From positions 308-46,765 of the forward strand of contig CAZFUP010000002.1 of the NCBI GenBank assembly GCA_964522055.1: a DNA stretch of 46,458 nucleotides, given 5' to 3'. Numbering within the stretch: position 1 is the stretch's first letter; each line of letters starts with the position of its first letter. A program made the position numbers and the translations under genes. The DNA is from an uncultured Gammaproteobacteria bacterium (GTDB taxonomy: Bacteria; Patescibacteriota; Patescibacteriia; Patescibacteriales; UBA12465). Of this stretch, positions 4,767 through 41,223 are shown one piece after another. The notes below the pieces were generated by a model. It was not told the origin of the DNA and did no database searches. It saw only the letters and a list, made by a program, of their open reading frames with translations.

Positions 4767-4794
4767 ATTATTTTAAAAAGATTTTATAAAAAAT

Positions 4795-4819
4795 CAGGCA
4801 AGTTGCCTGGTTTTTTTTT
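4795..4819 (+). terminator. Rho-independent terminator
   Basis: caggca-agt-tgcctg hairpin followed by a T9 run, directly after the stop at 4766. Confidence 0.8.
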
Positions 4820-4877
4820 AATTTTCCATCAGCCCATATTTGCTATATTAAAGACACTAAGAAATAAAAAAGTATTT

Positions 4878-5837
4878 ATGGACAAATTTAAATTGTTTAT
4901 TTTAAAGCTTATTAAATCATTTAAACATTGTTTTTTAAGGAATAAAAAAAGGCGAATCATTTTCTTTTTAAACCTGTTTTTATTAGTTTTTGTTATTTAT
5001 TTTGCTATTGCCTGGTTTTCTGTTAGCCGAGTAGAGATTGCTTTAGCGGAATATCGCGATTCTTTTTCACCAGAAATTATTTGTCATGAAGAATGTCATT
5101 TATATCGCCAAGCACGCGAACAAATAATTAAAAATGAGTTAAAAAATAAATTATCAAAAGATATTACTTTATTACAAAAATATTTTGAAGATGAAAATTC
5201 TCCTTTAGAATTTAGAAAAGAACTTATAAAAATAATTGCCTTTGTCTTTGGAAAGAATAATCCGCCTGAGTATTTAAGAGCTTATGTTTTAAAGGATAAA
5301 GTAGATCCGATAATAGTAAGGGAAATAATTATTTACTTTAACGATTTTTTAAGCAGAGCAGGGGAATTTAAAAATAATTTAGCCATAAAAATTATGCAGG
5401 CAGAAACTAAAAATGAAAAAATAGAATGGATGAAGATATTAAGGGAGATAAGTAACGATACGGAGATTGATGAATATTTTGCTGTCTTATCTGGTGATGA
5501 AGACGAATTGGTAAAATGTGAAATTTTAAAAAATATCAGCTTAATAAAAGATAAGCGTACGTATTTTACTCTAGATCAATTAGAACTTATTGGCACTTTG
5601 ATATTTAATCCCGATACTGGCTTAAGATTACGTCGTGATTTAGTTCTTTTAATTGGTGATTATTTTCTGATATTTAAAGATGAAAGTGCGGCACTTTGGC
5701 GAGAAATATATGCTTCAGAAAAGATAGATGGCATTAGTCGTTTATTTGCTGCTGATAACTTAAATCATCTCTTGAAAGAAAATTTGATTTTGCCGCTAGT
5801 TAGTTCATCGGAGTGGAATGAATATTATAATTATTAA
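4878..5837 (+). CDS. Hypothetical protein with an N-terminal membrane anchor
   Basis: The tracked ORF starts at TTG 4803, inside the upstream terminator. The first ATG (4878, MDKFKLF...) is the likely start. One TM segment (IIFFLNLFLLVFVIYFAIAWF), and the rest is helical-looking. Confidence 0.55.
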   Translation: MDKFKLFILKLIKSFKHCFLRNKKRRIIFFLNLFLLVFVIYFAIAWFSVSRVEIALAEYRDSFSPEIICHEECHLYRQAREQIIKNELKNKLSKDITLLQKYFEDENSPLEFRKELIKIIAFVFGKNNPPEYLRAYVLKDKVDPIIVREIIIYFNDFLSRAGEFKNNLAIKIMQAETKNEKIEWMKILREISNDTEIDEYFAVLSGDEDELVKCEILKNISLIKDKRTYFTLDQLELIGTLIFNPDTGLRLRRDLVLLIGDYFLIFKDESAALWREIYASEKIDGISRLFAADNLNHLLKENLILPLVSSSEWNEYYNY

Positions 5838-5844
5838 TTAAAAT

Positions 5845-8800
5845 ATGAAAAATAAAAAAAAATTTAAAATAATATCTTTCATCTTTTGGCTTTTCTTGTT
5901 TTTCAATCTTTCCTTAAGTGATTGTTTAGCTCTTCCGCCTGGAGCACTTTTGTTTAGAACATCCTCTAATGGAAAAATGTTTGGTTATAGCGGTGATGAT
6001 TTAGCAGAAGTAGATAAAGGGATATTAAAAAACATTTTTCCTGGACATGTTGGTATATATATAGGCAAAGAAAACGGTGTTGATTATGTGGTTGAGGCTT
6101 TGGCAGAGGGAATTGTTAAAAAGCCGGCTAGCCAATTTGTTAATACTGCTAATGGAGAAAAGTATTTAGGGGCTAAGATGCCAAGAAGCTTAACGGCCGT
6201 ACAACAAGCTAAGGCAGTAGCAATTGCTAAGAGTTTAGCAGACAGCAATTTAACTTATGATTTTGATTTTAAAACTCAAAAAGGCCCAAAGAGTGGACAA
6301 TGGACTTGTGTTGGTTTGGTAGAAAAAATTTATGAAAGTGCTAACATTTCTAATCCCAGTAATTTAATGGCCTTAGAATATGATCAAAATTATTACGCAG
6401 TAGATATTACAGCTGATGGACTAGATCATTATAGCCTAGTATCTGATAATGGCGATTGTTTTTCTAAGGATTATGAATTTTCTAAAATTGCTAGACGAAC
6501 TAATTTATTGCTACCAGCCCCAGAATTGATTGGTTTTAATCTTGGTCTTGAAAAGGATGGCGAGCGCTATATTTTTTTTCCGTATACGCAATTTCTACAA
6601 TCCGAATTAGTTAATGTTCCGACTGATATTACTATTTCTTCTTCTTTTGATGATGATAAATTGCGTGGTTCGGTAAATAATTTATCTTTAGTTTTACGCT
6701 GGAGCTTGATTAATAATCCGCTCTCATCTTTGAAAGTAATAGGTGATAAAATTAGTGATCTAGCTCTTGGTGTAAAGAAAAAAATGGTAAATACCACCGA
6801 AGAAGAAATGAATGTTTTTTTAGAAGAAGTTGTAGAGACGGTTAGCCCAGAAACGGCTGCTCTAGCAAAAAGCATTGCGGTTATCAATAAAAAGAGTGAA
6901 GAAGAGAAAGAGGAAGAGAAAGAGGATAAAAAAGAAGAAGAGCTAAAAATACCACGCAATGAAGAGGGCGAAATAATTGTTTCTGAATACTTTGATCAAG
7001 GCGAAGAATCAATTATGGCCCTTATTAATAAAGGTTTGCAGGCTGGTTTAAAAGAATTCTTTACCACAGGCAAGTCAAGCGGCGTTACCGGTTCATTCGC
7101 AGAAGATGAAATAAATGAAGATGAAGAATTTCTTTTTAAAGAAGAATTAGAAACTTCTTCCAAAGAAGAAGTTATTAAAGAAGAAATAATAAAAGAAGAT
7201 ATTAAAATTGCAAAAATAGCTACCATTAATCGTATTTATAGCACTGGTAATAATGATTTTATTGAATTATATAATCCTGGTGATTATGATTTTGATTTAA
7301 TGGCAGAAAAATATCGTCTGGAAAAAGCTAAAACAGCCGAAGATCCAAGTTTGATTTTACGTTTTGGAAATACAGATGACGCTTCATATCCTGGTGGGAC
7401 GGTTATAAAGGCGCATGATACTTATTTAATAGTTAAAGAAACTGCTAGTAAGTATTATTTAGATCAGGCAGACGCTATTGCTAAGCGATCTGAGTTTACT
7501 TGGCCAAGTAAAGGATATACGATTTATTTAGGCAAAGGAGCGATTAGCTCCACTCAGGATCCGGATATTATTGAAGCGGTTGGTTTTGGAAAAAATGCGA
7601 CTTATTTCCAGGGCAATGGTCCAGCTCAGGAGATAATGGAAAATTATATATTAAAAAGGATTCATGATTATGGTCACAATAATTTAGATTTCATTTTGGT
7701 AAAATCTGACGATCCAAGTATTGACTGGACACCACCTAAGGAAAACGAAAATAATAACAATAATGAAAATAATGTAGAAGAAGAAACAAGTTCAGTAATT
7801 ATTAATGAAAATCAGGCAACTAGCACTGAAGAGTTAGAAGTTGTTGCTAGTAGCACTGAAGAAGTTGTAGCGACTTCAAGCGAGGAAATTGTGGCTACTT
7901 CTTCTTTGCCTTGTGGCCGAGCGATAATTAGCAGGATTTATAGTCGCGGTGATAGCGATGGTATAGAACTTTATAATCCGACAGAGTATAGTTTGGATTT
8001 AGCAGCTGAAAATTATCGTTTAGAGAAAGCCAAGACAGCTGAGGACCCTAGTTTAATAATGCGTATCGGTTCTTCTTCTGATGGTCTTTATCCTGGCGGG
8101 ACAGTTATTGAGCCTTTTGGAACTTATCTTATCTCATCAAGTGACGCTAGTAGCTACTATTTAGAAAAAGCGCAAGCTATTGCTACCAGAACAGAATTTT
8201 CTTGGTTTAATTCAGGTTATTCTTTTTATTTAGCTACTAGTTCTATAAGTTCTAGCACTGATTCAGATATTGTTGATTTGGTTGGTGTTGGTCCAAATGC
8301 TCTTTACTGGCAAGGAATGGGGCCGGCACCAGCTCTAAAAGATAATTATGTTCTTACAAGAATTAGTGAAACAAAGAATAACAATTTGGATTTTAATTTA
8401 GTTAAATCTGATAATCCAGAAATAGTTTGGGGTGGAGACGCTATAGTGGAATCAAGCTCTAATAGTATTTATACTTTTAGCTCTGATTCCTACGACCTCT
8501 TTTCTTTGCCAGAACCAATTATCTCTCCTTCTCTTACGTATTTATGGCATTTTGATGAATGTTATGGTTCAGTTGCTCTACCGGCAATTAGTTCTACATC
8601 TTTAGAATTAACACCTAATTGGAGTGTGGGAAAATTCGGTTGTGCAAAAAAGAATGGCTATGATTATGGTTGGAGTAGGGCAGAGTTACCGCAAGAAATA
8701 GATTTAAATAGTTTTTCTATAAGTTTTTGGTTTAGAAAAGAAACAAAGAGTCCTCGTTTAAGTCTTACTTTAAGCAATGAAAACGATGATTTTATAAATT

Positions 8801-9747
8801 TAACACTAGAAGATGGTTTGATTCAGATAGACGGACTAGCAACTCCTGCTTGGAGAAACTTTATGACTTTTCCTTTTGATGAAACTTGGCGTCAAGCAGT
8901 TTTAGTTGTTAACAGGGAAGAGGGCTATTGGTCTTTATATATTGACGGCGAAGAAGTTTTTAGAGTTGATACTTTTAAGCTTTTGCCAATTATGAATTAT
9001 CTTGATGTTAGTGGTAATAATGGTTCTTATCGTTTAGATGAGTTAGCTATTTGGAATCGTCCTTTACCCGAGGAAGAAATTATTTATCTGCGTGAGGCAG
9101 AGCAACCATTTGCACCATCTTTTATTCCTCCTCCTCAAGAAAAAGCAGTGTTAAAACATTTTTGGAACTTTAATGAGGGAATAGGTACTAGCTCTTTAGA
9201 TTTGATAGGAAATTCAGAAATGAATTTTAGAAATACAGATTGGAATAATATTGATTTTGAAAATAGCTCTCTTTTAGTTTCTTGTTGTGGAAACACAAAC
9301 AATGCCTCTTTGGCAGAAATTAATTCCAATGATTTATCTTTAACTTATAAATGGCGCCCCAATAGCAATAAAGGAGAGCGTTCAAAAGTATCTCTACGGA
9401 ATGAAACGACGCCTGATATATTTAGTATTGTTTCTGGCAATTTTCTTTCAGCTTATTATTTTTATGGTGGTCGAGATTATTTAAGTAATAATGATGATAT
9501 AAGCATTCCGTCTGATCAAGAATGGCATGATTTAGCGCTTGTTTATGATTCATACCGCTATCAATTAAATTATTATGTAGATGGGGTTTTAAAGAGACAG
9601 CTAGAAAATATCTGGCCACCAGGAAAAGAAGCTATTACTAGCTTAGAAATACTTTCTGAAAATTGGACCTCAGAAATTGATGATTTAGGCATTTGGGAAG
9701 GCGCTTTAAGTGCTAAGCAGGTTGAAGAAATTTCTTCTAATAATTAA
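5845..9747 (+). CDS. Giant secreted/surface protein: signal peptide, permuted papain-like (YiiX/Peptidase_C92-like) domain, acidic linker, 2 x lamin-tail domain (LTD), 2 x LamG/concanavalin-like (Laminin_G_3) domain
   Basis: N-terminal KKKFKIISFIFWLFLFFNLSLS signal. GHVGIYIG...VVEALAEGIV...QWTCVGLVEKIYE has His before Cys, the permuted NlpC/P60 order. FIELYNPGD and GIELYNPTE are LTD cores. DELAIWNRPL..EEI and IDDLGIWEGALSAKQVEEI are typical LamG_3 C-terminal strands. Confidence 0.85.
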   Translation: MKNKKKFKIISFIFWLFLFFNLSLSDCLALPPGALLFRTSSNGKMFGYSGDDLAEVDKGILKNIFPGHVGIYIGKENGVDYVVEALAEGIVKKPASQFVNTANGEKYLGAKMPRSLTAVQQAKAVAIAKSLADSNLTYDFDFKTQKGPKSGQWTCVGLVEKIYESANISNPSNLMALEYDQNYYAVDITADGLDHYSLVSDNGDCFSKDYEFSKIARRTNLLLPAPELIGFNLGLEKDGERYIFFPYTQFLQSELVNVPTDITISSSFDDDKLRGSVNNLSLVLRWSLINNPLSSLKVIGDKISDLALGVKKKMVNTTEEEMNVFLEEVVETVSPETAALAKSIAVINKKSEEEKEEEKEDKKEEELKIPRNEEGEIIVSEYFDQGEESIMALINKGLQAGLKEFFTTGKSSGVTGSFAEDEINEDEEFLFKEELETSSKEEVIKEEIIKEDIKIAKIATINRIYSTGNNDFIELYNPGDYDFDLMAEKYRLEKAKTAEDPSLILRFGNTDDASYPGGTVIKAHDTYLIVKETASKYYLDQADAIAKRSEFTWPSKGYTIYLGKGAISSTQDPDIIEAVGFGKNATYFQGNGPAQEIMENYILKRIHDYGHNNLDFILVKSDDPSIDWTPPKENENNNNNENNVEEETSSVIINENQATSTEELEVVASSTEEVVATSSEEIVATSSLPCGRAIISRIYSRGDSDGIELYNPTEYSLDLAAENYRLEKAKTAEDPSLIMRIGSSSDGLYPGGTVIEPFGTYLISSSDASSYYLEKAQAIATRTEFSWFNSGYSFYLATSSISSSTDSDIVDLVGVGPNALYWQGMGPAPALKDNYVLTRISETKNNNLDFNLVKSDNPEIVWGGDAIVESSSNSIYTFSSDSYDLFSLPEPIISPSLTYLWHFDECYGSVALPAISSTSLELTPNWSVGKFGCAKKNGYDYGWSRAELPQEIDLNSFSISFWFRKETKSPRLSLTLSNENDDFINLTLEDGLIQIDGLATPAWRNFMTFPFDETWRQAVLVVNREEGYWSLYIDGEEVFRVDTFKLLPIMNYLDVSGNNGSYRLDELAIWNRPLPEEEIIYLREAEQPFAPSFIPPPQEKAVLKHFWNFNEGIGTSSLDLIGNSEMNFRNTDWNNIDFENSSLLVSCCGNTNNASLAEINSNDLSLTYKWRPNSNKGERSKVSLRNETTPDIFSIVSGNFLSAYYFYGGRDYLSNNDDISIPSDQEWHDLALVYDSYRYQLNYYVDGVLKRQLENIWPPGKEAITSLEILSENWTSEIDDLGIWEGALSAKQVEEISSNN
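7219..7728 (+). repeat. Lamin-tail-domain repeat 1 (intragenic protein-level duplication)
   Basis: ATINRIYSTGNNDFIELYNPGDYDFDL...YRLEKAKTAEDPSLILRFG...NNLDFILVKSDDPSIDW is collinear with repeat 2. Confidence 0.7.
7921..8430 (+). repeat. Lamin-tail-domain repeat 2
   Basis: AIISRIYSRGDSDGIELYNPTEYSLDL...YRLEKAKTAEDPSLIMRIG...NNLDFNLVKSDNPEIVW. The DNA differs from repeat 1 at many synonymous sites. Confidence 0.7.
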
Positions 9748-32454: not shown

Positions 32455-33960
32455 ATGGATGAAAATAAAAAAAATAATAAGTTAAACATTAATCCCGGAT
32501 TTTTATATCTTAGTTTTTTTATTTTTATAGAAATCTCTTCTTATTTTTCGTTATTTAATCCAGTTTTTAATAAGATATTTTTTATAGCCCTTGTTTTTGG
32601 CTTATTTATATTAACTCTTTACAAGCTTGAATATGGTTTACTAGCCGTGGTTAGCGAATTGCTTATCGGGTCAATGGGGCGTTTATTTTCTTTAGAAATA
32701 AGTGGCTTTTCTCTAAGTATTCGCATGGCTTTTTGGCTAGTTTTTCTATTTGTTTTTATTGGAAAATTTATTGTAAATTTGCGCCAGGAAGGTTTAAAGG
32801 GGAAATACTTACAAGCGATAAAAGATTTTCATTTTCTTAAATATTTTTTAGTTTTAGCTATTTTTATAATTCTTGGAATAATAAACGCTACCTTTAAGGG
32901 GAATTCTTGGAATTTAGTCTTTAGTGATTTTAATGGTTGGCTTTATTTTCTACTTCTTTTTCCAACCATAATTGTCTGCACTTTAGAAAAGGAAAAAAGT
33001 TTAAAAAATATAAAGATACTATTTTTTATTTCTTTTCTCTGGCTAAGCCTTAAAACTTTCTTATTATTATATGTTTTTACCCACAGTTTAAGTTTCTCCT
33101 CAGAAGTATATTTCTGGTTGCGTAAAACTTTAGTTGGCGAAATGACAAATACCTTATCTGGCTGGCCACGTATTTTTATCCAAGGACAAATTTTTGCTGC
33201 CGCCGGACTATTCTTTTCTTTTTGGCAAAATTTTAAAATAAAAAAGAATGATTATTTAAAAAAAACAATTAATTTTCTATTAGCCTCTCTTTTTGCTGGT
33301 GTTTTATTAATTAGTTTTTCTAGAAGTTTTTGGCTAGCTTTAATTTTAGTCCTAGCTTTTATTATTATTTTATCTATTAAGCTTTACTCTTGGAAAAAAA
33401 TGTTTCTAGCTGCCTTATGGACAGGCTTAGTTTTTGCCGGCGCTTTTAGTCTTCTTTATTTAACAACTGTAATTCCTTGGCCTCGCTCTGGAAACTTTAA
33501 TGTTGATTTTGCTAGTCGGGTTAATGTAAGTGATAAAAACGAAGCGGCTATTTCTTCACGTTGGTCGCTTTTGCCAGCTTTGATGAAGGAAATATCACAA
33601 GAACCATTTTTTGGACAAGGATATGGCGCAACTGTTACTTATCTCTCACAAGATCCAAGGGTATTAGAAAATAATCCCAGCGGCCTCTATACTACCTACG
33701 CCTTTGAATGGGGTTATCTTGATATTTGGCTTAAGTTGGGAATAGGTGGAATAATAGCCTATCTATTATTACTTTTCTTTTTAATAAAAGAATCAATAAT
33801 TTTAGGATTAAAGAAAAATAATCCCATTCTTTTAAGTATCGCTAGTATCTTACTTTTTTTGTTAATTGTTAATTTTTTTACCCCATATTTAAATCATCCC
33901 CTGGGAATAGGGACAATTATAATCGTCTCTTGTCTTATCAATAAATATAGGGTATATTAG
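32455..33960 (+). CDS. O-antigen ligase/polymerase-like (Wzy_C) polytopic membrane protein
   Basis: More than 10 TM segments. SRSFWLALILVLAFIII and a periplasmic loop with FFGQGYGATV. Confidence 0.7.
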   Translation: MDENKKNNKLNINPGFLYLSFFIFIEISSYFSLFNPVFNKIFFIALVFGLFILTLYKLEYGLLAVVSELLIGSMGRLFSLEISGFSLSIRMAFWLVFLFVFIGKFIVNLRQEGLKGKYLQAIKDFHFLKYFLVLAIFIILGIINATFKGNSWNLVFSDFNGWLYFLLLFPTIIVCTLEKEKSLKNIKILFFISFLWLSLKTFLLLYVFTHSLSFSSEVYFWLRKTLVGEMTNTLSGWPRIFIQGQIFAAAGLFFSFWQNFKIKKNDYLKKTINFLLASLFAGVLLISFSRSFWLALILVLAFIIILSIKLYSWKKMFLAALWTGLVFAGAFSLLYLTTVIPWPRSGNFNVDFASRVNVSDKNEAAISSRWSLLPALMKEISQEPFFGQGYGATVTYLSQDPRVLENNPSGLYTTYAFEWGYLDIWLKLGIGGIIAYLLLLFFLIKESIILGLKKNNPILLSIASILLFLLIVNFFTPYLNHPLGIGTIIIVSCLINKYRVY

Positions 33961-33993
33961 TCATTAATTATTCTTAAAAGAAAATAAAAAAGT

Positions 33994-34452
33994 ATGAATG
34001 AACAAATTATTTCCCAAGAGGGATACGATAAATTAAGAGACGAAATGATTTTTCTAAGCACAGTTAAAAGAAAAGAGATTGCGGAAAGAATAGAAAGAGC
34101 TAAAGAATTAGGAGATTTAAGTGAAAATGCTGAATACAGTGAAGCAAAAGATGCTCAAGCTTTAAATGAAGGTAGAATTTTAGAGCTAACCAATACTTTA
34201 AAAAATGTTACGGTTGTTCAAAGTGAAAAATCAAGAGATAAAGTAGTAATGGGTTCAAAGATAACTGTAAAAACGGACAAAAACGAAAAACAATATACTA
34301 TTGTTAGTTTCAATGAAGCAGATCCTTTAAATGGGAAAATATCTAATGAATCTCCTTTGGGTGTAGCTTTTCTGGAAAGAAAAAAGGGGGATAGTGTTGA
34401 AGTAGAGACGCCACGCGGAATAGTTAAGTATAAAATACTTAAGATAGAATAA
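33994..34452 (+). CDS. greA: Transcription elongation factor GreA
   Basis: Canonical coiled-coil tip ELGDLSENAEYSEAKD and C-terminal domain ISNESPLGVAFLERKKGDSVEV. Confidence 0.92.
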   Translation: MNEQIISQEGYDKLRDEMIFLSTVKRKEIAERIERAKELGDLSENAEYSEAKDAQALNEGRILELTNTLKNVTVVQSEKSRDKVVMGSKITVKTDKNEKQYTIVSFNEADPLNGKISNESPLGVAFLERKKGDSVEVETPRGIVKYKILKIE

Positions 34453-34453
34453 T

Positions 34454-34900
34454 ATGAGGCTTTGGAGCCTTGATCCTAAACATCTTGATCGCCAAGGATT
34501 AATTGCTCTTTGGCGAGAAGGGTTATTGGCTAAAAATGTTTTAGCAGGGAAGACTAAAGGTTATAAAAATCATCCGCAACTTGAACGTTTTAAAGAAGCA
34601 AAAAATCCACTTGAATATATTAACTCTTATCTATACTCTGTTTATCAGGAAGCTAAAAAACGTGGTTATAATTTTTCTCTTGATAAGCTAGAGAAAGTCC
34701 AAACAGATTTACAGAAAATAACTATAAACGAAGACCAACTGCTTTATGAATTCAAACATTTGCTAAATAAATTAAAAATAAGAGATGTAGATAAATATAA
34801 GGAAATACTTAATCTAAAAAAGATAAAAACACATGAACTATTTAGAAAGATAAAAGGACCTATTGAAAAATGGGAAAGAATAATTAATAATAAGAAATAG
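34454..34900 (+). CDS. Pyrimidine-dimer DNA glycosylase/AP lyase-like protein (T4 endonuclease V / Pyr_excise family)
   Basis: MRLWSLDPKHLDRQGLIALWREGLLAKNVLAGKTKGYKNHPQLERF is the conserved N-terminus of bacterial DenV-like proteins. It starts 2 nt after the greA stop. Confidence 0.7.
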   Translation: MRLWSLDPKHLDRQGLIALWREGLLAKNVLAGKTKGYKNHPQLERFKEAKNPLEYINSYLYSVYQEAKKRGYNFSLDKLEKVQTDLQKITINEDQLLYEFKHLLNKLKIRDVDKYKEILNLKKIKTHELFRKIKGPIEKWERIINNKK

Positions 34901-34904
34901 TTTT

Positions 34905-34978
34905 TCGGGGATCGTCTAATGGTAGGACTCCAGGTTCTGGTCCTGGCTATCTGGGTTCGAATCCTAGTCCCCGAGCCA
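34905..34978 (+). tRNA. tRNA-Gln (anticodon CTG), CCA encoded
   Basis: TCGGGGA / GTCT-AATGGTA-GGAC / CCAGG-TTCTGGT-CCTGG / CTAT / CTGGG-TTCGAAT-CCTAG / TCCCCGA-G-CCA. It has the U1-A72 pair typical of bacterial tRNA-Gln. Confidence 0.9.
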
Positions 34979-34989
34979 ACGTAGATTAA

Positions 34990-35013
34990 GCGAGGTTAAA
35001 GCCTCGTTTTTTC
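34990..35013 (+). terminator. Rho-independent terminator after tRNA-Gln
   Basis: cgagg-ttaaag-cctcg followed by T6. Confidence 0.65.
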
Positions 35014-35036
35014 TTTTATTTTCGCCAAAATATGTC

Positions 35037-35050
35037 GGTTCGAACCTAGT
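35037..35050. repeat. tRNA-Gln T-arm-like fragment, copy 1 (GGTTCGAACCTAGT)
   Basis: Matches tRNA-Gln 34954-34968 (GGTTCGAATCCTAGT) with a 1-nt deletion. The core GGTTCGAACC is a palindrome. Confidence 0.45.
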
Positions 35051-35139
35051 GATTTCAGCGTTAAATTTTTCAACGTTATTTCGGAGCGGAATAAGCCAAT
35101 TATGATAAGAAATGCTAATGTTTTTGCCAATTATTCTTT

Positions 35140-35151
35140 GGTTCGAACCTA
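35140..35151. repeat. tRNA-Gln T-arm-like fragment, copy 2 (GGTTCGAACCTA)
   Basis: The same 12-mer as at 35037-35048, 103 nt away. Confidence 0.45.
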
Positions 35152-35220
35152 ACTTCTTAATGATGTTATTTCGTGTTTCCTTGCCGCCTTTATCAAACTC
35201 CTTTCGAGCTCGAGCACAGA

Positions 35221-35252
35221 AAATAAAAAACCGTTCACTCAATTGTGAACGG
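35221..35252 (-). terminator. Rho-independent terminator of the minus-strand Gre-like/kinase operon
   Basis: Minus strand reads ccgttcac-aattga-gtgaacgg followed by TTTTTTATTT, about 25 nt downstream of the stop at 35278. Confidence 0.8.
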
Positions 35253-35277
35253 CTATTTTGTTGTTTGTTCCAGAAAT

Positions 35278-35811
35278 TTATAAATAAATTTTCTGTAGCA
35301 ATTTTTCTACTGACTCTTCGACCTTGAGACCGCTGGTGTCAAAAAATTCCAAGGGAAATTTAGCAAACTCTTGAAAAACATTTTCTTGACAATTAAAGTC
35401 GGTATCAAAGGCGCCAAGATTTTTTCTTTGCCCTATTCTTCTGATTACTTCTTCTTTTTCTGCGTAAAGACAAAAAGCGTAATCGGCTTGAATGACGGTT
35501 TTAATCAGGTCGCCCGAAATAGCAATTCCTAGAGCGCGGTGATAAGCGATTGTTGAATAAATGTATCTATCACAGACAACATGGTTATGCTTTAAAATTT
35601 CTACTATTTCGTTGGCGGCATAAATAGTGCCGCTTAAATAATAGTAGAATCTTAGATTGTAATCTTTTGTTTTTTCAATCGACTCCCGTAAATTTTCAAA
35701 AATTTTTGGAGGCGTCTTATAGTAGATTCCACCTATTTTTTTTGCCAGTTCAATTGCACAAGAACTCTTTCCTGATCCGTCACACCCCTCAAAAACAATT
35801 AATTTTTTCAT
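35278..35811 (-). CDS. Thymidylate-kinase-family P-loop nucleotide kinase (dTMP kinase-like)
   Basis: The likely start is ATG 35811 (MKKLIVFEGCDGSGKS...), 1 nt after the upstream stop. The tracked longer ORF overlaps the upstream gene. P-loop FEGCDGSGKS, DRYIYSTIAYH (DR[YH] motif plus AYQ-like), and a lid-like RRIGQRK. Confidence 0.75.
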   Translation of the reverse strand: MKKLIVFEGCDGSGKSSCAIELAKKIGGIYYKTPPKIFENLRESIEKTKDYNLRFYYYLSGTIYAANEIVEILKHNHVVCDRYIYSTIAYHRALGIAISGDLIKTVIQADYAFCLYAEKEEVIRRIGQRKNLGAFDTDFNCQENVFQEFAKFPLEFFDTSGLKVEESVEKLLQKIYL

Positions 35812-35812
35812 T

Positions 35813-36277
35813 TTACTCAATTTTTTTAATGATGATCTGTTTCCCGTTAAAAGAAGTTGTTTCGCCAATTTTTTTTCCAAGAAGAACGGAATAAAGTGGG
35901 GCCTGTTTACTTACAGCAAATATACTTGTATTACCAACTTTAATTTTTTGACCGCCACCACAAGGAATCAGAAATATTAACTGACTACTGTTATTCGTAT
36001 TTATTTCTACTAATGAACCAAGCAGGACAGTGCTTGTCTCCTTGGGCAGTGAAAAATTAACCAGCTCTTTGATAATATTTTGCATATCGTGTGCCTTTTT
36101 AAAAAGAGCATTTGATAGATAGCTCATCTCTTCTTTTGTTGAGTCGTATCTAGATTCATTTCTTCCTGGAGCATTGATAGCGGCGTCTCTGACTGCGTCA
36201 GCCTGCTCTATCGTCGATTCAAGGGTTTTTTGCAATTTCTTGATGATTTCATCAAAAATTTCTTTTTTAGTTTTCAT
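35813..36277 (-). CDS. GreA/GreB/Rnk-family protein (second Gre-like paralogue; non-canonical coiled-coil tip)
   Basis: The likely start is ATG 36277 (MKTKKEIFDEI...); the tracked start at 36319 is TTG. N-terminal helical hairpin with GRNESRYDSTKEEMSYL. The C-terminal domain VLLGSLVEI...IFAVSKQAPLYSVLLGKKIGETTSFNGKQIIIKKIE fits the Gre C-terminal pattern (V..GS.V...IS..SPL...LLGKK.GD). Confidence 0.65.
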   Translation of the reverse strand: MKTKKEIFDEIIKKLQKTLESTIEQADAVRDAAINAPGRNESRYDSTKEEMSYLSNALFKKAHDMQNIIKELVNFSLPKETSTVLLGSLVEINTNNSSQLIFLIPCGGGQKIKVGNTSIFAVSKQAPLYSVLLGKKIGETTSFNGKQIIIKKIE

Positions 36278-36322
36278 AATTCCTATTTTTTTGTGAGTAT
36301 TTATGTTAAAGAACTTCAAATT

Positions 36323-36351
36323 AAACTACATCATTTATGATATTTTGTCAA
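36323..36351 (-). promoter_or_regulatory. Putative promoter of the Gre-like/kinase operon (TTGACA-17-TAGTTT)
   Basis: Minus strand reads ttgaca aaatatcataaatgatg tagttt. The -35 lies inside a 15-nt element shared with the nucleotidase promoter. Confidence 0.45.
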
Positions 36352-36352
36352 T

Positions 36353-36387
36353 GTTTGCGCGGCTTAGTTCAAGAAACTAGCGCAAAC
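36353..36387. promoter_or_regulatory. GC-rich inverted repeat GTTTGCGC-N19-GCGCAAAC between the divergent -35 boxes (candidate operator)
   Basis: Perfect 8-bp arms at 36353-36360 and 36380-36387. This is the only GC-rich patch in the AT-rich 173-bp divergent intergenic region. Confidence 0.45.
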
Positions 36388-36391
36388 ACCC

Positions 36392-36420
36392 TTGTTATTT
36401 TGAGCTTAATTTGAAATAAT
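36392..36420 (+). promoter_or_regulatory. Putative promoter of the CYTH/radical SAM operon (TTGTTA-17-AATAAT)
   Basis: ttgtta at 36392-36397 and aataat at 36415-36420, 30 nt upstream of ATG 36451. Confidence 0.3.
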
Positions 36421-36450
36421 ATTATTAATATCAACTTAAAAAATAAAATT

Positions 36451-36987
36451 ATGCAAATCGAAAATGAAGTTAAATTTAGAACGAGTAGACCCGGAAAATT
36501 AATGAAAAAGAAAATTATTGATTTTGGTTTTAAATTTAAAAAAGAAATATCTCAAGATGATTACTATTTTTCACCGCCACACAAAAAATTTGCCGGAACA
36601 AAAAAATATTATCTCCGTCTTAGAAAAAAATCAGATGGTACGGCCGTTTTTGCTTATCATGTAGTTATTAATAATTTACAAACCAAGGAATTAGAACTAG
36701 CCTGCGATAATTTTATAATTTTAAAAACTATTTTGACTAAGCTAGATTTTAAACTGGATTGCGTTGTTAAAAAACATAGACAAATATTTGTAGACGAAAA
36801 AAATAACTTTGAGTTAGTTCTCGATAAAGTTGTCGGTCTCGGTTATTTTATAGAAATTGAATATGTCGGCAAAATGACAAAAGCAACTAGCCAAAAATTT
36901 CAGGAGTTAGTTGATTATCTTGGTCTTAAAAAAAGTCAGATAGTCTCTGGTTGTGGATATCCTGACTTGTTAATGGAAAAAAAATAA
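36451..36987 (+). CDS. CYTH-domain protein (CyaB-like class IV adenylyl cyclase / triphosphate tunnel metalloenzyme)
   Basis: N-terminal ExExK signature (IENEVKF, nt 36460-36474), DDYYF, YLRLRKK, LVLDKVVGLGYFIEIEY, and a C-terminal GYPDLL. 178 aa, the typical size. Confidence 0.75.
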   Translation: MQIENEVKFRTSRPGKLMKKKIIDFGFKFKKEISQDDYYFSPPHKKFAGTKKYYLRLRKKSDGTAVFAYHVVINNLQTKELELACDNFIILKTILTKLDFKLDCVVKKHRQIFVDEKNNFELVLDKVVGLGYFIEIEYVGKMTKATSQKFQELVDYLGLKKSQIVSGCGYPDLLMEKK

Positions 36988-36991
36988 TATT

Positions 36992-37987
36992 ATGCTTAAA
37001 GTAAAATTTTGTTTACCTCGTTCAATTAGAATCAAATTAAATAGCACTTGTCAGTATAATTGTAAATTTTGTCATCAAGAGGGTAATAGTACTGCTCAAG
37101 AAGTCAATCAAGACGAGGTTGTTGCTTGTTTAAAAAAGTTTAAAAAAGAATTATTTTTTTACAGAGTTCACTATACGGGCGGAGAACCAACTTTATATCG
37201 AAATTTAATAAGTTTAATAAAAAAAACTAAAAAAATTGGCATCATTAACTCCATTACTTCAAATGGACAGTTTGATCCAAGCCTTTTGTCAAAACTTAAA
37301 GACGCGGGCCTCGACTCTATAAATTTCAGTATTCACTCTTTAGAAAAATTTTCATTTTTAAAACTACAAAATCATAAAATGAGCACTAAAGAAGGAGCTT
37401 TGTGGGCACAAAACTGTATAGACTTAGCTGTTAGCAATGTTATTAATGCAGAAAAGTTAATAAATACTAAAATCAACTGTGTTGTAGGTGATGAGTTTTC
37501 CAGTGCAGAAGATATATTATTGTTTTGTGCAAAAAACAATATTAAACTGCGGCTTTTAAATGATTTGTCTTTAGGTGAAAGATCTTTGCAAACAATTAAC
37601 TTTATTTTAAAGAAGAACGAAGCTAATTTAATTGGCCACGAGGTAACCTTAATTAGTTCTAGTCATCGTTTAGACTATCAACTCAATGAAAAATACAATT
37701 TTGGAGTTAAGTGTATTAGAAATTTTTATCTAAAGTCTCTCTGTGATGATTGCCCGATTAGAAGAGCGGGGAAATGCTACGAAGGATTTTATGGAATTCG
37801 TTTGGAGGGTAATCCACTTAAAGTAAGACTATGCTTATATCGTAATGGGTCGCCATTTGTACAAAGTCTAAAGGATTTCTTTAAAAGTAGGCAGTATAAA
37901 GAGCTTAAAAAAGATACCGAGAATGTCAAACAATATTTATTAAAAGATGATATTATAGAAGAGCAAAAAACTAATTTGAAAAAATAA
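36992..37987 (+). CDS. Radical SAM enzyme, MoaA/viperin-like (nucleoside-triphosphate-type architecture)
   Basis: IRIKLNSTCQYNCKFCHQEG (CX3CX2C at 37049-37072), YTGGEPTLYRNL, SITSNGQF, LKDAGLDSINFSIHSL. C-terminal cysteines CDDCPIRRAGKC...GIRLEGNPLKVRLCLY (37742-37834) are reminiscent of the MoaA auxiliary-cluster/GTP-binding tail. Starts 4 nt after the CYTH stop. Confidence 0.7.
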   Translation: MLKVKFCLPRSIRIKLNSTCQYNCKFCHQEGNSTAQEVNQDEVVACLKKFKKELFFYRVHYTGGEPTLYRNLISLIKKTKKIGIINSITSNGQFDPSLLSKLKDAGLDSINFSIHSLEKFSFLKLQNHKMSTKEGALWAQNCIDLAVSNVINAEKLINTKINCVVGDEFSSAEDILLFCAKNNIKLRLLNDLSLGERSLQTINFILKKNEANLIGHEVTLISSSHRLDYQLNEKYNFGVKCIRNFYLKSLCDDCPIRRAGKCYEGFYGIRLEGNPLKVRLCLYRNGSPFVQSLKDFFKSRQYKELKKDTENVKQYLLKDDIIEEQKTNLKK

Positions 37988-38092
37988 GTGAATCTTTAAG
38001 ATAGGATTTCTTTGAGTAATATAAATATTAAGAGTTAATATCTCATCTAATCTTAGTCATACTAGTTTGAACATCATCCACGATTCTGAACA

Positions 38093-38121
38093 TTGACAAA
38101 ATAACACTTTACAGCTTAATA
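38093..38121 (+). promoter_or_regulatory. Putative promoter of the HAD nucleotidase gene (TTGACA-17-TTAATA)
   Basis: Consensus -35 at 38093-38098 and -10 at 38116-38121, about 40 nt upstream of ATG 38160. Confidence 0.5.
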
Positions 38122-38159
38122 TTGCTTAAAATAGCAACTTAAAAAGAAAGAAGAAAACA

Positions 38160-38756
38160 ATGAACATCGCAGTAGATTTAGACGACACTTTAGTCGATTT
38201 ACTCGAACAATTAATTTTATTCCATAATAATACTTTTGGAACAAATTTAAAGAGAAATGATTTCAACACTTGTATTTATCAAAAGGTGTGGGGAGGAAGT
38301 CGAGAAGAGACAATAGCTAAAATAATGAATTTCATTGCTTCTCCGTATTTTCAGGACATACGACCTTTAATAGGCGCGGTTGAAGGTGTTGAACATTTAA
38401 AAAGCTTGGGACATAATCTGTTTTTAGTAACTGGCCGTGATAATAACACAAATATTTTAACTAGAAAATTATTAGATCAATATTTTTCTGGATATTTCTG
38501 TGGTGTTTATCACACTAATGCATATACGCATAGTGATGGTTGGCTCAAAAAATCAGAAGTTTGTGCACGCTTAAAAGCACCTCTTATCATCGACGATGAC
38601 CCAATTCATATTCATGATTGTACTGATCGAGGAATTAAAGTCTTAGTCTACGATAATCCATGGAACAGAATTGAATTGCCAGTTGGTGCAACGCGGGTAT
38701 TAAATTGGAAAGAAATTATTGTTTGCGTCAATGAGTTGGCAACAGAGAATCTTTAG
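38160..38756 (+). CDS. HAD-superfamily 5'(3')-deoxyribonucleotidase-like phosphatase (NT5C-like)
   Basis: Motif I IAVDLDDTLVD (DxDxT), motif II LFLVTGRD, and motif III/IV K...LIIDDDPIHI. The size and layout are like NT5C/YorS-type nucleotidases. Confidence 0.65.
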   Translation: MNIAVDLDDTLVDLLEQLILFHNNTFGTNLKRNDFNTCIYQKVWGGSREETIAKIMNFIASPYFQDIRPLIGAVEGVEHLKSLGHNLFLVTGRDNNTNILTRKLLDQYFSGYFCGVYHTNAYTHSDGWLKKSEVCARLKAPLIIDDDPIHIHDCTDRGIKVLVYDNPWNRIELPVGATRVLNWKEIIVCVNELATENL

Positions 38757-38775
38757 CAGGATTCTCTTTTTATTT
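38744..38775 (+). terminator. Rho-independent terminator overlapping the nucleotidase stop codon
   Basis: agagaatc-tttagcag-gattctct followed by TTTTTATTTT. Confidence 0.75.
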
Positions 38776-38894
38776 TAAGTAATAATAAATAATACTTAAT
38801 CATATATAATCTTAAAAAATACGTTTACAAAAGAATTTTTTTATGGTATATATTTATATAGTTTTCATTATTTTTCTTAATATTTTACAAACCT

Positions 38895-40394
38895 ATGACA
38901 CAAAAAAGTCATCAAAATGAAGATAAATTACCAGAAGAGTCTTCTCATATCAGTGAAACTGAGGATCGTCTGCGTAAACTAGAGGAATTAAAAGAAAAGG
39001 GAATTAATCCTTATCCAGCAAAGGTAAAGCGCGACATGACTGTTAAATCTTTTTTTGAGAACTTTAGCTTACTAGAAGAGAGGGCTGTAAATATCGTTGG
39101 CCGTCTAAGATCTAAAAGAATACATGGCAATCTTGCTTTTGCTGATTTACAAGATGAAAGCGGTACCTTGCAACTAGTTTTTTCTAAAAAAGAACTTGAG
39201 GGCGATAGTTTTAAAACTTTTGTTAAATTAATAGATACAGCTGATTTTATTCAAGTAACTGGTGTTCCGTTTTTAACCAATAAAGAGGTAAAGAGTTTAA
39301 TGATTAAAGATTTTAAACTTTTAACCAAAGCCTTAAAACCAATCCCTGATTCTTGGTATGGACTAAAAAATGAAGAAGAAAGACTTAGAAAAAGATATAT
39401 TGATTTACTGTTAAATGAAGAATTAAGAGATATTTTTTATAAAAAAGCTAAATTCTGGTCAGTCACTAGAGAATTCATGAAAAAGAAAGGTTTTTTTGAA
39501 GTAGAAACACCAACTTTAGAAACAACCACCGGTGGTGCTGAAGCTAATCCTTTTATAACTCACCATAATGATTTTGACATGCAAGTTTATCTTCGTATTT
39601 CCATTGGTGAATTGTGGCAAAAAAGATTAATGGCGGCTGGTTATGAAAAAGTTTTTGAAATTGGCCGTGCTTATCGTAATGAAGGTTCTAGCCCAGATCA
39701 TTTACAAGAATTTACCAACATGGAATTCTACTGGGCCTACGCTGATTATGAAGAAGGAATGAAGCTTGCTCAAGAGCTGTATCAAGAATTAGCTATGCAA
39801 GTTTTTGGCACTACTAAGTTTACAACCAAAGGAATGGAATATGATCTGTCAGGAGAATGGGAAAGAATTGATTATAGACAAACTGTCTTGGATAAAACCG
39901 GAATTGATGTTCTTGGTGCTAGTGAAGAAGAAATGAAGGCAAAGCTGGAAGAGTTAAAGGTTAAATATGAAGGGGATAATAAAGAGAGATTAATGGATAC
40001 TCTTTGGAAGTATTGTCGTCGTAGTATTGCTGGCCCGGTTTTTTTAATAAATCACCCAAAGTTAGTTTCACCGCTAGCCAAGGCTAAAACAGACAATCCA
40101 GAATTAACAGAAAGATTTCAAATTATTATTGCTGGATCAGAAATTGGTAATGGCTTTTCTGAATTAAATGACCCAATAGACCAAAGAAAAAGATTTAATT
40201 TGCAACAAGAATTAATAGACAGAGGGGATAATGAAGCGATGATGGCTGACTGGGAATTTGTCGAAATGCTAGAGCATGGCATGCCGCCTACTTGTGGTTT
40301 TGGTTTTGGCGAAAGATTGTTTGCTTTTTTATGCAATAAACCAGTTAGAGAAACAACCCTGTTTCCTCTAATGAAACCTAAAAAAGAGGATTAA
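38895..40394 (+). CDS. lysS: Lysyl-tRNA synthetase, class II
   Basis: OB-fold N-domain (GRLRSKRIHGNLAFADLQDESG). Class II motifs FFEVETPTLE, FEIGRAYRNEG and GFGFGERLF. Confidence 0.95.
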   Translation: MTQKSHQNEDKLPEESSHISETEDRLRKLEELKEKGINPYPAKVKRDMTVKSFFENFSLLEERAVNIVGRLRSKRIHGNLAFADLQDESGTLQLVFSKKELEGDSFKTFVKLIDTADFIQVTGVPFLTNKEVKSLMIKDFKLLTKALKPIPDSWYGLKNEEERLRKRYIDLLLNEELRDIFYKKAKFWSVTREFMKKKGFFEVETPTLETTTGGAEANPFITHHNDFDMQVYLRISIGELWQKRLMAAGYEKVFEIGRAYRNEGSSPDHLQEFTNMEFYWAYADYEEGMKLAQELYQELAMQVFGTTKFTTKGMEYDLSGEWERIDYRQTVLDKTGIDVLGASEEEMKAKLEELKVKYEGDNKERLMDTLWKYCRRSIAGPVFLINHPKLVSPLAKAKTDNPELTERFQIIIAGSEIGNGFSELNDPIDQRKRFNLQQELIDRGDNEAMMADWEFVEMLEHGMPPTCGFGFGERLFAFLCNKPVRETTLFPLMKPKKED

Positions 40395-40410
40395 TTTTTA
40401 TTAAAATAAA

Positions 40411-41223
40411 ATGAATAGGCTAATAAAAGCTTTAATTTATTCTTTTGCTTTACTGGTAATTTTAACTGGCGTCCTTTTTTTAATTAATTTTATTTCACCC
40501 GGTTCTAAAATTCCAGAAACAAGCAATGAGATAACTACAGAAACAGAAGAAGAAAAAAAGAACATGTTTATTGCTCAAGGTAAATTTGTTTGTTTACCTG
40601 TAATAGACGAAAACAAACCTCACAACGATATTTGTCTTTTTGGAATACAGACAAATGATGGTTATTATCGTTTGCAAACAAATGAAAACGAAAATTTTCT
40701 AGCTACTTTAGAAAATAATCAAAATATACAAGTCTCAGGTGAGTTAATAGCTGAAAACGATGGGGTCCATCAATCTTCAGGCACGATCCATATAGAAGAA
40801 ATAAAAAATTTAGAAGAAAAAAATAATATCCTTCCGGAAAATTTTAAAGCCGATTATATTTCTTTTTCAAATTACAAAATAAACAAATACAAAACAGAAA
40901 TGTATCCTCGCCTAGAATTCTGGCCAGAAAATGGAGAAATAGAATGTGAAGAGATAAACGGCAATCCTTTAAAGATAGCAAAAAAGAAAATAAACGGGAA
41001 AAAATATTGTATTGCCAATTCCAGCGAAGGAGCCGCCGGATCAGTTTACTCTCAATATGCTTATGGTACAGTTATAGATGATTATATTTACACAGTTATT
41101 TTTTTAGCTCGTTACTCAAATTGTGGCAATTATCCTGAAGAAGAAATGGCTAAATGTGAAAACGAAAGAAATTCTTTTAATCTGGATATTTTAGTAGATG
41201 AAGAAATTAAAAAAATTAAATAA
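40411..41223 (+). CDS. Hypothetical membrane-anchored/secreted Cys-containing protein
   Basis: N-terminal TM/signal anchor (LIYSFALLVILTGVLFLINFI). No recognisable family. Confidence 0.5.
   Translation: MNRLIKALIYSFALLVILTGVLFLINFISPGSKIPETSNEITTETEEEKKNMFIAQGKFVCLPVIDENKPHNDICLFGIQTNDGYYRLQTNENENFLATLENNQNIQVSGELIAENDGVHQSSGTIHIEEIKNLEEKNNILPENFKADYISFSNYKINKYKTEMYPRLEFWPENGEIECEEINGNPLKIAKKKINGKKYCIANSSEGAAGSVYSQYAYGTVIDDYIYTVIFLARYSNCGNYPEEEMAKCENERNSFNLDILVDEEIKKIK

Follow-up and report, generated by a model that had tools for sequence, protein, structure and literature searches.

A mobile four-gene cassette in which a MoaA/AbmM-related radical SAM enzyme is accompanied by CYTH, Gre-fold and thymidylate-kinase-like proteins

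Introduction

What could a radical S-adenosylmethionine (SAM) enzyme be doing when its gene travels with those of a CYTH protein, a thymidylate-kinase-like kinase and a paralogue of the transcription factor GreA? The question is raised by a stretch of DNA of 46,458 nucleotides (hereafter the window), which corresponds to positions 308 to 46,765 of contig CAZFUP010000002.1 in assembly GCA_964522055.1, named as an uncultured Gammaproteobacteria bacterium and placed by GTDB in the Patescibacteriota. Its G+C content is about 31%, and the nearest relatives of its proteins carry Patescibacteria names. A first-pass annotation, made from the letters of the sequence, had described between tRNA-Gln and lysS five genes with nucleotide-handling folds, i.e., the four just mentioned and an NT5C-type nucleotidase, and had proposed that they form a single module that makes, processes and contains a modified nucleotide, possibly as an antiviral or signalling system. 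We examined which of these genes belong together, how their products relate to known enzymes and which function would account for their association.

Four Genes Form a Mobile Cassette

The five open reading frames and the tRNA-Gln lie at the coordinates and with the spacings first given for them, and their start codons are backed by homologues, which use the same ATGs. Likewise, the domain assignments of all five proved right in Pfam and NCBIfam searches, the Gre-like protein being recognised through a family profile and an AlphaFold model. On the minus strand, the gene of a Gre-fold factor of 154 aa with a remodelled coiled-coil tip (35813–36277) is followed by that of a thymidylate-kinase-like P-loop nucleoside monophosphate kinase of 177 aa (35278–35811), the stop of the former being separated from the ATG of the latter by a single nucleotide (35812). 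On the plus strand, the gene of a CYTH/triphosphate tunnel metalloenzyme of 178 aa (36451–36987) precedes that of a radical SAM enzyme of 331 aa (36992–37987), with four intervening nucleotides between stop (36987) and ATG (36992).

The extent of the unit was given by its close relatives. When positions 33001–41000 of the window were compared with all collected loci by blastn, no similarity was found beyond 35220–38059. The matches of three loci (L055, L060 and L061; 77.7–79.4% identity) start at 35220–35277, and that of L058 (89.9% identity), which runs from 36418, where the L058 contig begins, reaches furthest, to 38059. The radical SAM proteins of these relatives are 85–93% identical, yet the DNA similarity ends at the cassette edges. 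The flanks are also different: a LexA-like protein, DinB and a GIY-YIG protein surround the cassette in L055, and MetRS and ArgRS in L056, both unlike the flanks of the window. Since similarity is confined to 35220–38059 between unrelated flanks, the unit is a mobile four-gene cassette. Hence, the kinase, Gre-like, CYTH and radical SAM genes form a self-contained, horizontally mobile module. The proposed five-gene unit thus holds for these four genes and fails for NT5C, which lies outside the shared DNA block. The locus is indeed variable among relatives, as had been suspected; on the other hand, the interval between tRNA-Gln and lysS is not a conserved site, neither of the two being shared with close relatives.

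The partnership was then measured over a larger set. Gene contexts were pooled from 7 homologues, 47 genome loci and 80 metagenome loci and scored with family hidden Markov models; partners were counted in 97 non-identical loci, many of them on incomplete contigs, and in the subset of 33 that have 2.5 kb or more of sequence on either side. For the radical SAM family, which is small, a word-seeded search recovered 74 proteins. In the 97 loci, the radical SAM gene is accompanied by CYTH in 62, by a Gre-like gene in 49 and by the kinase in 37, while a class I methyltransferase (9 loci) and a NUDIX hydrolase (about 6) are minor partners. The CYTH count takes in a divergent subfamily that we first met as a 191-aa protein without a name. 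Among the 33 well-flanked loci, CYTH is present in 27, Gre-like in 16 (plus one TFS-like protein), the kinase in 13, NUDIX in 6 and NT5C in one, which is the window. CYTH is therefore the commonest partner, and Gre-like, mostly coupled to the kinase, the second. The association can also be approached from the other side: three Gre-like homologues, picked only for their long contigs, all adjoin a radical SAM gene with a kinase and/or CYTH. Co-occurrence in other genomes had been named beforehand as a check of the module, and the four genes are repeatedly co-localised, across phyla. Because the radical SAM arrangement recurs in about 100 loci, it is far from what chance would produce.

The module seems to have no further standing member. 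No other family recurs among the 150 nearest flanking proteins, taken from about 45 flank-surveyed loci out of the 97, and neither the scoring of the loci nor this survey revealed a transporter, an integrase or a regulator as an extra conserved partner. No convincing att-type direct repeats bound the cassette. It adjoins a tRNA in 17 of the 97 loci, which is not clearly above expectation; a tRNA-Gln is also found upstream of the cassettes of L066 and L129.

The Radical SAM Enzyme

The radical SAM domain is unambiguous (PF04055, 1.5e-19), and two of its segments, the CX3CX2C motif (C20/C24/C27) and TGGEPT, are invariant or nearly so in the family. The same is true of a C-terminal block, C251-x2-C254-x7-C262-x-E-x-FYGIRLE...RLC281L. 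Two arginines, R187 and R270, are invariant, as is R13, which aligns with R17 of MoaA, one of the three arginines mutated in PDB 2fb2. The protein thus shares with MoaA the CX3CX2C and TGGEP motifs, the R17-equivalent arginine and a cysteine-rich C-terminal segment ending in RL..CL. MoaA acts on GTP.

In spite of these likenesses, curated models place the protein outside both of the families to which it could be assigned. The profile searches against MoaA and prokaryotic viperin models proposed in the first-pass annotation all gave scores below the cutoffs: 81, 98 and 90 bits with the MoaA models TIGR02666, TIGR02668 and NF001199 (cutoffs 284, 325 and 231), and 60 bits with the viperin model NF038283 (viperin_w_prok; cutoff 180). 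The PADLOC pVip match (2.4e-17) covers the radical SAM core only. Mob_synth_C (PF06463) is absent from the window protein and from family members P0001–P0069, and appears only in the distant matches P0072–74. The cysteine spacing is CX2CX7C...X18C and not the CX2CX13C of MoaA. Moreover, no moaC, moaD, moaE or moeA was found in the 46-kb window, in the approximately 100 loci or in the flank survey. The model cutoffs therefore rule out that the protein is an orthodox MoaA or a viperin, and the absence of Mob_synth_C and of moa partners agrees with this for MoaA.

Where, then, does the enzyme belong? Against the PDB, the family profile matches MoaA (2.8e-25), AbmM (1.8e-20) and, more distantly, the viperins (about 1e-10), whereas in a single-sequence search (phmmer) AbmM (8wm2) comes first, at 2e-11. 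The AlphaFold model (pLDDT 92) has MoaA as its best match (8e-14), followed by peptide maturases, BlsE, viperins and AbmM. The resemblance to AbmM, the radical SAM enzyme of albomycin thiofuranose formation, is concentrated in a common C-terminal motif, CxxC-x6/7-C-x-E...RL...R-x-CL: residues 267–296 of AbmM, CGTC..RDAARCMEQSHSLRL.GADMKFRPCL, align with CDDCPIRRAGKCYEGFYGIRLEGNPLKVRLCL of the window protein. Overall identity is about 20%, and sulfur insertion by the cassette enzyme finds no support in our data. Judged from these comparisons, the protein is neither MoaA nor a viperin and belongs to a clade of its own, nearest to MoaA and AbmM. As for the substrates of its relatives, PDB titles give nucleotides or nucleosides for viperin (CTP, UTP) and BlsE. 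For AbmM, too, a nucleotide or nucleoside substrate is described (PMC12691670).

One homologue departs from the pattern. On plasmid pNDM1_010055 of Acinetobacter sp. WCHA55 (L155), the radical SAM homologue (4010–4996) has a cluster-like motif, RIVLEGRCNFNCGFP, near its C-terminus, and the third cysteine is missing. This suggests, at the level of sequence, a circular permutation or an atypical cluster. Upstream of it lie genes of an AAA ATPase (PDC-M37B-like) and of a small 4Fe-4S protein.

The Kinase and CYTH Partners

The kinase belongs to the Thymidylate_kin family (4e-16), and its P-loop, DRY..ST and lid R..R motifs are conserved in 33 family members. It reaches only 57 bits with TIGR00041 (Tmk), whose cutoff is 83, and the L056/L057 cassette, 87% identical, lacks it cleanly. 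For these two reasons, the kinase is not a housekeeping Tmk. Its best matches in PADLOC are PDC-M51B (3.4e-22) and the viperin-associated kinase VakA (1.3e-13). PDC-M51, or any other PADLOC system, was considered as the identity of the cassette and rejected, because the kinase alone matches.

The CYTH protein is recognised by PF01928 (1.2e-15) and scores 73.8 bits with TIGR00318, above the cutoff of 58. Across 44 members, residues E4, E6, R56, R58, K108, R110, D125, E134 and E136 are maintained, so that the cassette enzyme keeps the ExE, RxR, KxR and ExE tunnel residues of Saci_0718, of the Pyrococcus furiosus protein 1yem and of CyaB. The name "adenylate cyclase" attached to TIGR00318 is not to be read literally, because the closest relatives of known structure all come from archaea (the CYTH proteins 1yem and 2dc4 and the triphosphate tunnel metalloenzyme Saci_0718) and are not proven cyclases. 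In the literature searched, we found no account of a dedicated partnership between CYTH and radical SAM enzymes.

A Gre-Fold Factor with a Remodelled Tip

The relationship of the third partner with Gre factors is faint in the single sequence. Taken alone, its sequence matches NF001262 weakly (1.3e-5) and gives no GreA_GreB_N Pfam match. The family profile finds Gfh1 (1.3e-5), GreA (3.5e-5) and GreB in the PDB, and the AlphaFold model (pLDDT 86.7) superposes best on Gfh1 bound to RNA polymerase (RNAP) (3aoi_X; TM 0.65), which bears out the Gre/Rnk-type call of the first-pass annotation. The model consists of two helices (residues 4–35 and 45–73) joined by a tip loop (36–44) and a C-terminal beta domain. 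It thereby resembles GreA/GreB, Gfh1 and Rnk in its two-helix coiled coil and in a beta domain with an SP.G..L.GK..G motif. We infer from the fold that the protein would bind in the secondary channel of RNAP.

The predicted tip loop is the most conserved segment of the family. In the window it reads APGRNESRYD (residues 36–45), and the family pattern, APGR(N/M)xSRYD(S/T), replaces the acidic DxxE pair of GreA (D41/E44), which lies in a D-x-x-E-N-A-E-Y context; the cassette factor also differs from GreA in travelling with a radical SAM gene. In 59 diverse sequences R43 is invariant and Y44 and D45 nearly so. Since this tip lacks the catalytic acidic pair, classical Gre-type cleavage cannot be assumed. 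The window also encodes an orthodox, housekeeping GreA, 1.3 kb away (33994–34452, plus strand), with the tip GDLSENAEY, an NF001263 score of 169 bits (cutoff 145) and both Gre Pfam domains at about 1e-24. Because this GreA sits nearby, the cassette gene is to be regarded as an extra paralogue.

Indeed, the paralogue family is large. An exhaustive profile search returned 889 representative clusters at E≤1e-10; exact SRYD is found in about half of the top 150 matches, and many of the others have similar tips, for example TRYD or SRHD. In Pseudomonas, Gre paralogues with an A-E-N-K-Y-D-T tip (L154, 4998–5474; L156, 5007–5477) stand alone, with no radical SAM gene nearby, and one of them adjoins efp and earP. 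Because of this N-K-Y-D subfamily, the Gre clade with a basic-Tyr-Asp tip must be wider than the cassette. A pattern scan for viral carriage of the Gre-like gene found none, whereas the corresponding radical SAM scan did recover a phage (L138). One apparent viral match, to "Pseudomonas phage Y6" (L157; OQ572408.1, unverified), was discarded: the sequence contains host carB followed by a canonical greA and is P. aeruginosa chromosomal DNA.

Architectures and Genomic Contexts Elsewhere

In a rough neighbour-joining tree, Gre-like and kinase genes occur in most of the deep clades. The form made of NUDIX, radical SAM and CYTH corresponds to a single nested clade, in which NUDIX stands in for Gre-like plus kinase. 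Saccharibacteria have the radical SAM gene with the divergent CYTH only, in conserved synteny. In one clade, which includes Candidatus Kuenenia, the Gre-like and radical SAM genes are kept and a SorC-type sugar-phosphate-binding protein replaces CYTH. Another substitution is seen in L001, a bacterial, Patescibacteria-like contig where a TFS/TFIIS-type double zinc-ribbon protein (7859–8215, minus strand) is encoded directly upstream of the kinase, i.e., in the usual Gre-like slot, with an orthodox GreA nearby. The protein keeps the acidic hairpin (…LRADEGE…; "RADE"), and its sequence identifies it as a probable non-homologous transcript-cleavage module in the Gre-like position.

In several lineages outside Patescibacteria, the contexts are those of defence islands and mobile elements, in line with the conflict-related role first suggested. 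One case is a Deltaproteobacteria metagenome-assembled genome (MAG) (L009), in which a CHAT protease, gRAMP/Cas7-11 (E=0), the radical SAM enzyme, the Gre-like factor, the kinase, Eleos LeoBC and LeoA are encoded on one strand between 710 and 13567; the first two constitute a type III-E CRISPR locus, and only 4 nt separate the kinase gene from that of LeoBC. In Candidatus Kuenenia (L010), an RT-Cas1 gene upstream and a transposase gene accompany the Gre-like/radical SAM pair. Restriction-modification genes (L003 and L152), a WYL regulator with HicB (L150/151), an island with a helicase and Prim-Pol (L149) and Schlafen (L081) are found beside other members, and Mrr and SocA/Panacea are among the neighbours at further loci. 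The phage recovered by the radical SAM scan, an IMG/VR contig encoding a Mu-type portal as well as ERCC4 and PD-(D/E)XK nucleases, has kinase, radical SAM and Gre-like genes that overlap (5450–9712) and no recognisable CYTH. The same three genes are present on the Acinetobacter plasmid mentioned above.

Two further contexts point in other directions. On Bacillus cereus plasmids (L153, 4670–11234; NZ_CP063160.1), an ATP-grasp protein, the radical SAM enzyme, CYTH, a protein of 405 aa, an L-amino-acid ligase and a major facilitator superfamily (MFS) transporter are encoded together. Their radical SAM protein is a genuine member of the family (3e-38, with the same C-terminal motif), and by its gene content the locus looks like a peptidyl-nucleoside-type biosynthetic cluster with two ATP-grasp ligases and an MFS exporter. 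In L007 (2037–5957), and there only, a distant family member is found between queH and queA, accompanied by the genes of the divergent CYTH and of a Gre-like factor.

A Proposed Function in Conflict

We propose that the cassette makes and handles a modified nucleotide used in conflict, and that it is most likely an antiviral system following a viperin-like logic; we give this reading a probability of roughly 0.45. In the mechanism that we envisage, the radical SAM enzyme would bind a nucleoside triphosphate as MoaA does and generate a ribose-centred radical, with the help of its SAM cluster and of a second, auxiliary one coordinated by C251, C254, C262 and C281. The translationally coupled CYTH enzyme would act on the triphosphate of the substrate or of the product, either by hydrolysis or by cyclisation. 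The Tmk-like kinase would supply or re-phosphorylate the nucleotide, in the manner of the viperin-associated kinases CMPK2 and VakA. Finally, the S-R-Y-D tip of the Gre-fold protein would enter the RNAP secondary channel and keep host transcription running by removing or excluding the analogue. In the derived clade, the NUDIX hydrolase could represent an alternative way of sanitising the pool, in place of Gre-like and kinase.

The precedents for this logic are the prokaryotic viperins (pVip) with their nucleotide kinases and the pair formed by vertebrate viperin and CMPK2: in these systems as in the cassette, a radical SAM enzyme whose expected target is the ribose of a nucleoside triphosphate is associated with a kinase of the thymidylate kinase family, and pVip genes also lie in small mobile operons in defence islands. 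The differences are nevertheless substantial. Viperins have no counterpart of the four conserved C-terminal cysteines of the cassette's radical SAM enzyme, and CYTH and Gre-fold partners are obligate or frequent here, neither having a model in PADLOC-DB v2. A second precedent is the MoaA/MoaC pair, where a second enzyme follows the radical SAM step; in the cassette, this would be the CYTH protein, predicted to act on a triphosphate and unrelated to MoaC.

The first-pass annotation had stated that no system with this gene combination was known, and our searches agree: PADLOC-DB v2, queried with proteins from four different loci, as well as Pfam and NCBIfam, offer no specific model or family for the radical SAM, CYTH and Gre-like proteins, and full-text literature searches for the combination returned no description. 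What is already known is the radical SAM plus kinase logic of viperins, and the novelty lies in the clade of the enzyme, in its CYTH partner and in the presence of a dedicated Gre-fold factor.

The part of the Gre-like protein in this scheme is more tentative than the scheme itself. We suggest, with less assurance, that the S-R-Y-D paralogue is a dedicated partner, at the RNAP active site, of the nucleotide made by the radical SAM enzyme. It could keep host transcripts free of the analogue, by editing or by gating, or it could be the protein half of a nucleotide-plus-factor switch comparable to DksA/ppGpp. A protective or editing role is favoured because radical SAM and CYTH also occur without the Gre-like gene, because a NUDIX "sanitiser" replaces it in one clade, and because the catalytic residues are intact in the TFS-like substitute. 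With the acidic pair of GreA lost, the factor may instead be an effector or an inhibitor.

Several observations weigh against a function in intracellular conflict or against the role given to the Gre-like protein. The Saccharibacteria pair, with its conserved synteny, could reflect a housekeeping role. The flanks in Patescibacteria are mostly housekeeping genes, and defence matches make up a modest share of the 150 nearest flanking proteins, a share that is uncorrected for background. The B. cereus version, with its ligases and exporter, points to a secreted metabolite rather than to intracellular immunity. As for the Gre-like protein, its relatives in Pseudomonas stand alone, the missing D41/E44 pair means that the sequence does not imply stimulation of cleavage, and the displacement by a TFS-like protein concerns one locus only. 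Moreover, two members with the SRYD tip, P0093 and P0238 (MEK6935121.1 and MEK6860679.1), are deposited as proteins of Nanoarchaeota MAGs. A Gre-fold factor in archaea is unexpected, and these proteins may come from mis-binned Patescibacteria.

If the conflict reading were true, the cassette would represent a second, evolutionarily independent radical SAM lineage for polymerase poisoning of the viperin type by modified nucleotides, and its product could be a new nucleoside-analogue scaffold. It would also provide CYTH enzymes with a concrete pathway role and the large uncharacterised family of Gre paralogues with a function. If the Gre-like protein were indeed the partner of the nucleotide, a secondary-channel factor would for the first time be seen to set the specificity of a conflict system, and a new radical SAM plus CYTH route to a modified nucleotide would come to light. 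As carriers are available in culture, i.e., the Acinetobacter strain and B. cereus with their plasmids, the hypothesis can be tested directly.

Other Explanations

The most serious rival, although we consider it unlikely, is that the cassette serves, as a minimal biosynthetic cluster, to make a nucleoside or nucleotide antimetabolite directed against competing microbes or a host cell, in which CYTH or NUDIX and the Gre-like factor would confer self-resistance. There is a precedent in the thmABC cluster of 4'-thiothymidine, composed of a radical SAM enzyme, a nucleoside kinase and an NTPase; the cluster is mobile, its flanks differ between species, and the NTPase ThmC alone confers self-resistance (PMC12691670). 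AbmM, the top single-sequence PDB match and the second to MoaA by family profile, is likewise an enzyme of an antibiotic pathway. As cited in the same study, it swaps oxygen for sulfur on a cytidine nucleotide, with an FeS cluster as sulfur donor, and ThmA is reported there to be unrelated to AbmM (PMC12691670). The B. cereus plasmids, where radical SAM and CYTH are found with two ATP-grasp/L-amino-acid ligases and an MFS transporter, fit an antimetabolite well. However, no transporter or tailoring enzyme recurs in the roughly 45 flank-surveyed loci, the contexts in defence islands and in a phage fit immunity better, and the episymbiotic Patescibacteria, with their tiny genomes, are not known as antibiotic producers. 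A Gre-like factor is, in addition, found in the cassette only and not in the thmABC and AbmM clusters.

It is more doubtful that the nucleotide is a signal and the Gre-like protein its effector, which would plug or reprogram RNAP through the secondary channel, as in the cases of DksA with ppGpp and of Gfh1, and shut down transcription during infection or stress. This would agree with the inhibitor Gfh1 on RNAP being the best structural match, with a tip that is not GreA-like and with the translational coupling of the kinase and Gre-like genes; as CYTH is above the cutoff of the "class IV adenylate cyclase" model TIGR00318, a cyclic product is conceivable. Yet the solved relatives of CYTH include the triphosphate tunnel metalloenzyme Saci_0718, and the NUDIX clade, the Saccharibacteria and B. 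cereus have radical SAM and CYTH without Gre-like, so that the molecule would have to act there without its effector. The catalytic acidic hairpin of the TFS-like substitute in L001 also suits cleavage and not blockage.

A non-canonical nucleotide destined for the DNA or RNA of the carrier itself is, in our view, improbable to a slightly greater degree. It would be comparable to the hypermodified bases of phages or to modifications of the queuosine type, and the Gre-like factor would help RNAP to cope with a modified template or substrate. The phage with its set of kinase, radical SAM and Gre-like genes, the placement of a family member amid queH and queA in L007 and the conserved radical SAM plus CYTH synteny of Saccharibacteria could all be understood in this way. 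On the other hand, no glycosylase, transglycosylase or polymerase recurs as a partner, the que neighbourhood is an isolated instance, and a patchy, mobile distribution speaks against a core modification pathway.

Ordinary metabolism, i.e., a MoaA for the molybdenum cofactor, the thymidylate kinase of the cell, a second GreA and a salvage nucleotidase brought together by chance, can be virtually dismissed: automatic annotations (JGI and others) do name family members MoaA or cyclic pyranopterin phosphate synthase, and MoaA is the best structural match, but the MoaA models give 81–98 bits for cutoffs of 231–325, Mob_synth_C is lacking and moaC/D/E are found neither in the window nor in the loci, the kinase, which L056 can do without, stays below the Tmk cutoff, an orthodox GreA is encoded 1.3 kb away, and the four genes move together between unrelated flanks.

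Neighbouring Genes and Intergenic DNA

The genes around the cassette are local neighbours and not parts of it. This applies to lysS, to the tRNA-Gln(CTG) identified by Rfam (34905–34978, plus strand) and to the NT5C-type HAD nucleotidase (38160–38756, plus strand; PF06941, 9.3e-11). The latter was rejected as a fifth component because it lies outside the shared DNA block and because no NT5C homologue was found beside any other family member, either in the scoring of the loci or by blastn.

In the intergenic regions, Rfam reports tRNA only, with no riboswitch or other known RNA. A terminator-like hairpin followed by a T-run (35229–35254, minus strand) lies 3' of the kinase gene, at the cassette edge. 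The divergent promoter region (36278–36450) contains TTGACA-type boxes, which are conserved between the divergent gene pairs of close relatives. It also contains, at 36343–36379, a GC-rich inverted repeat, TGTTTGCGC-N19-GCGCAAACA, specific to the window and absent from L055, L056, L060 and L061. A further inverted repeat of 18 nt, 94% complementary (36338–36355 and 38089–38106), spans the TTGACA boxes of the Gre-like/kinase and NT5C promoters; it may reflect a shared regulation or merely two strong promoters.

The 300-bp spacer between tRNA-Gln and the cassette holds two extra copies of the T-arm core of the tRNA, GGTTCGAACCTAG at 35037–35049 and GGTTCGAACCTAA at 35140–35152, and the core pattern gives 5 matches for 0.4 expected. 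These extra copies may be what past integrations at the tRNA left behind, although there is no integrase gene near them. Just upstream of the tRNA-Gln, the orthodox greA is followed by a gene for a pyrimidine-dimer DNA glycosylase (Pyr_excise, 1.3e-23), the two together occupying 33994–34900. In 3 of the 33 well-flanked loci, a GreA of the housekeeping type is encoded at most 3 kb from the cassette, which is above the expectation for a single-copy gene.

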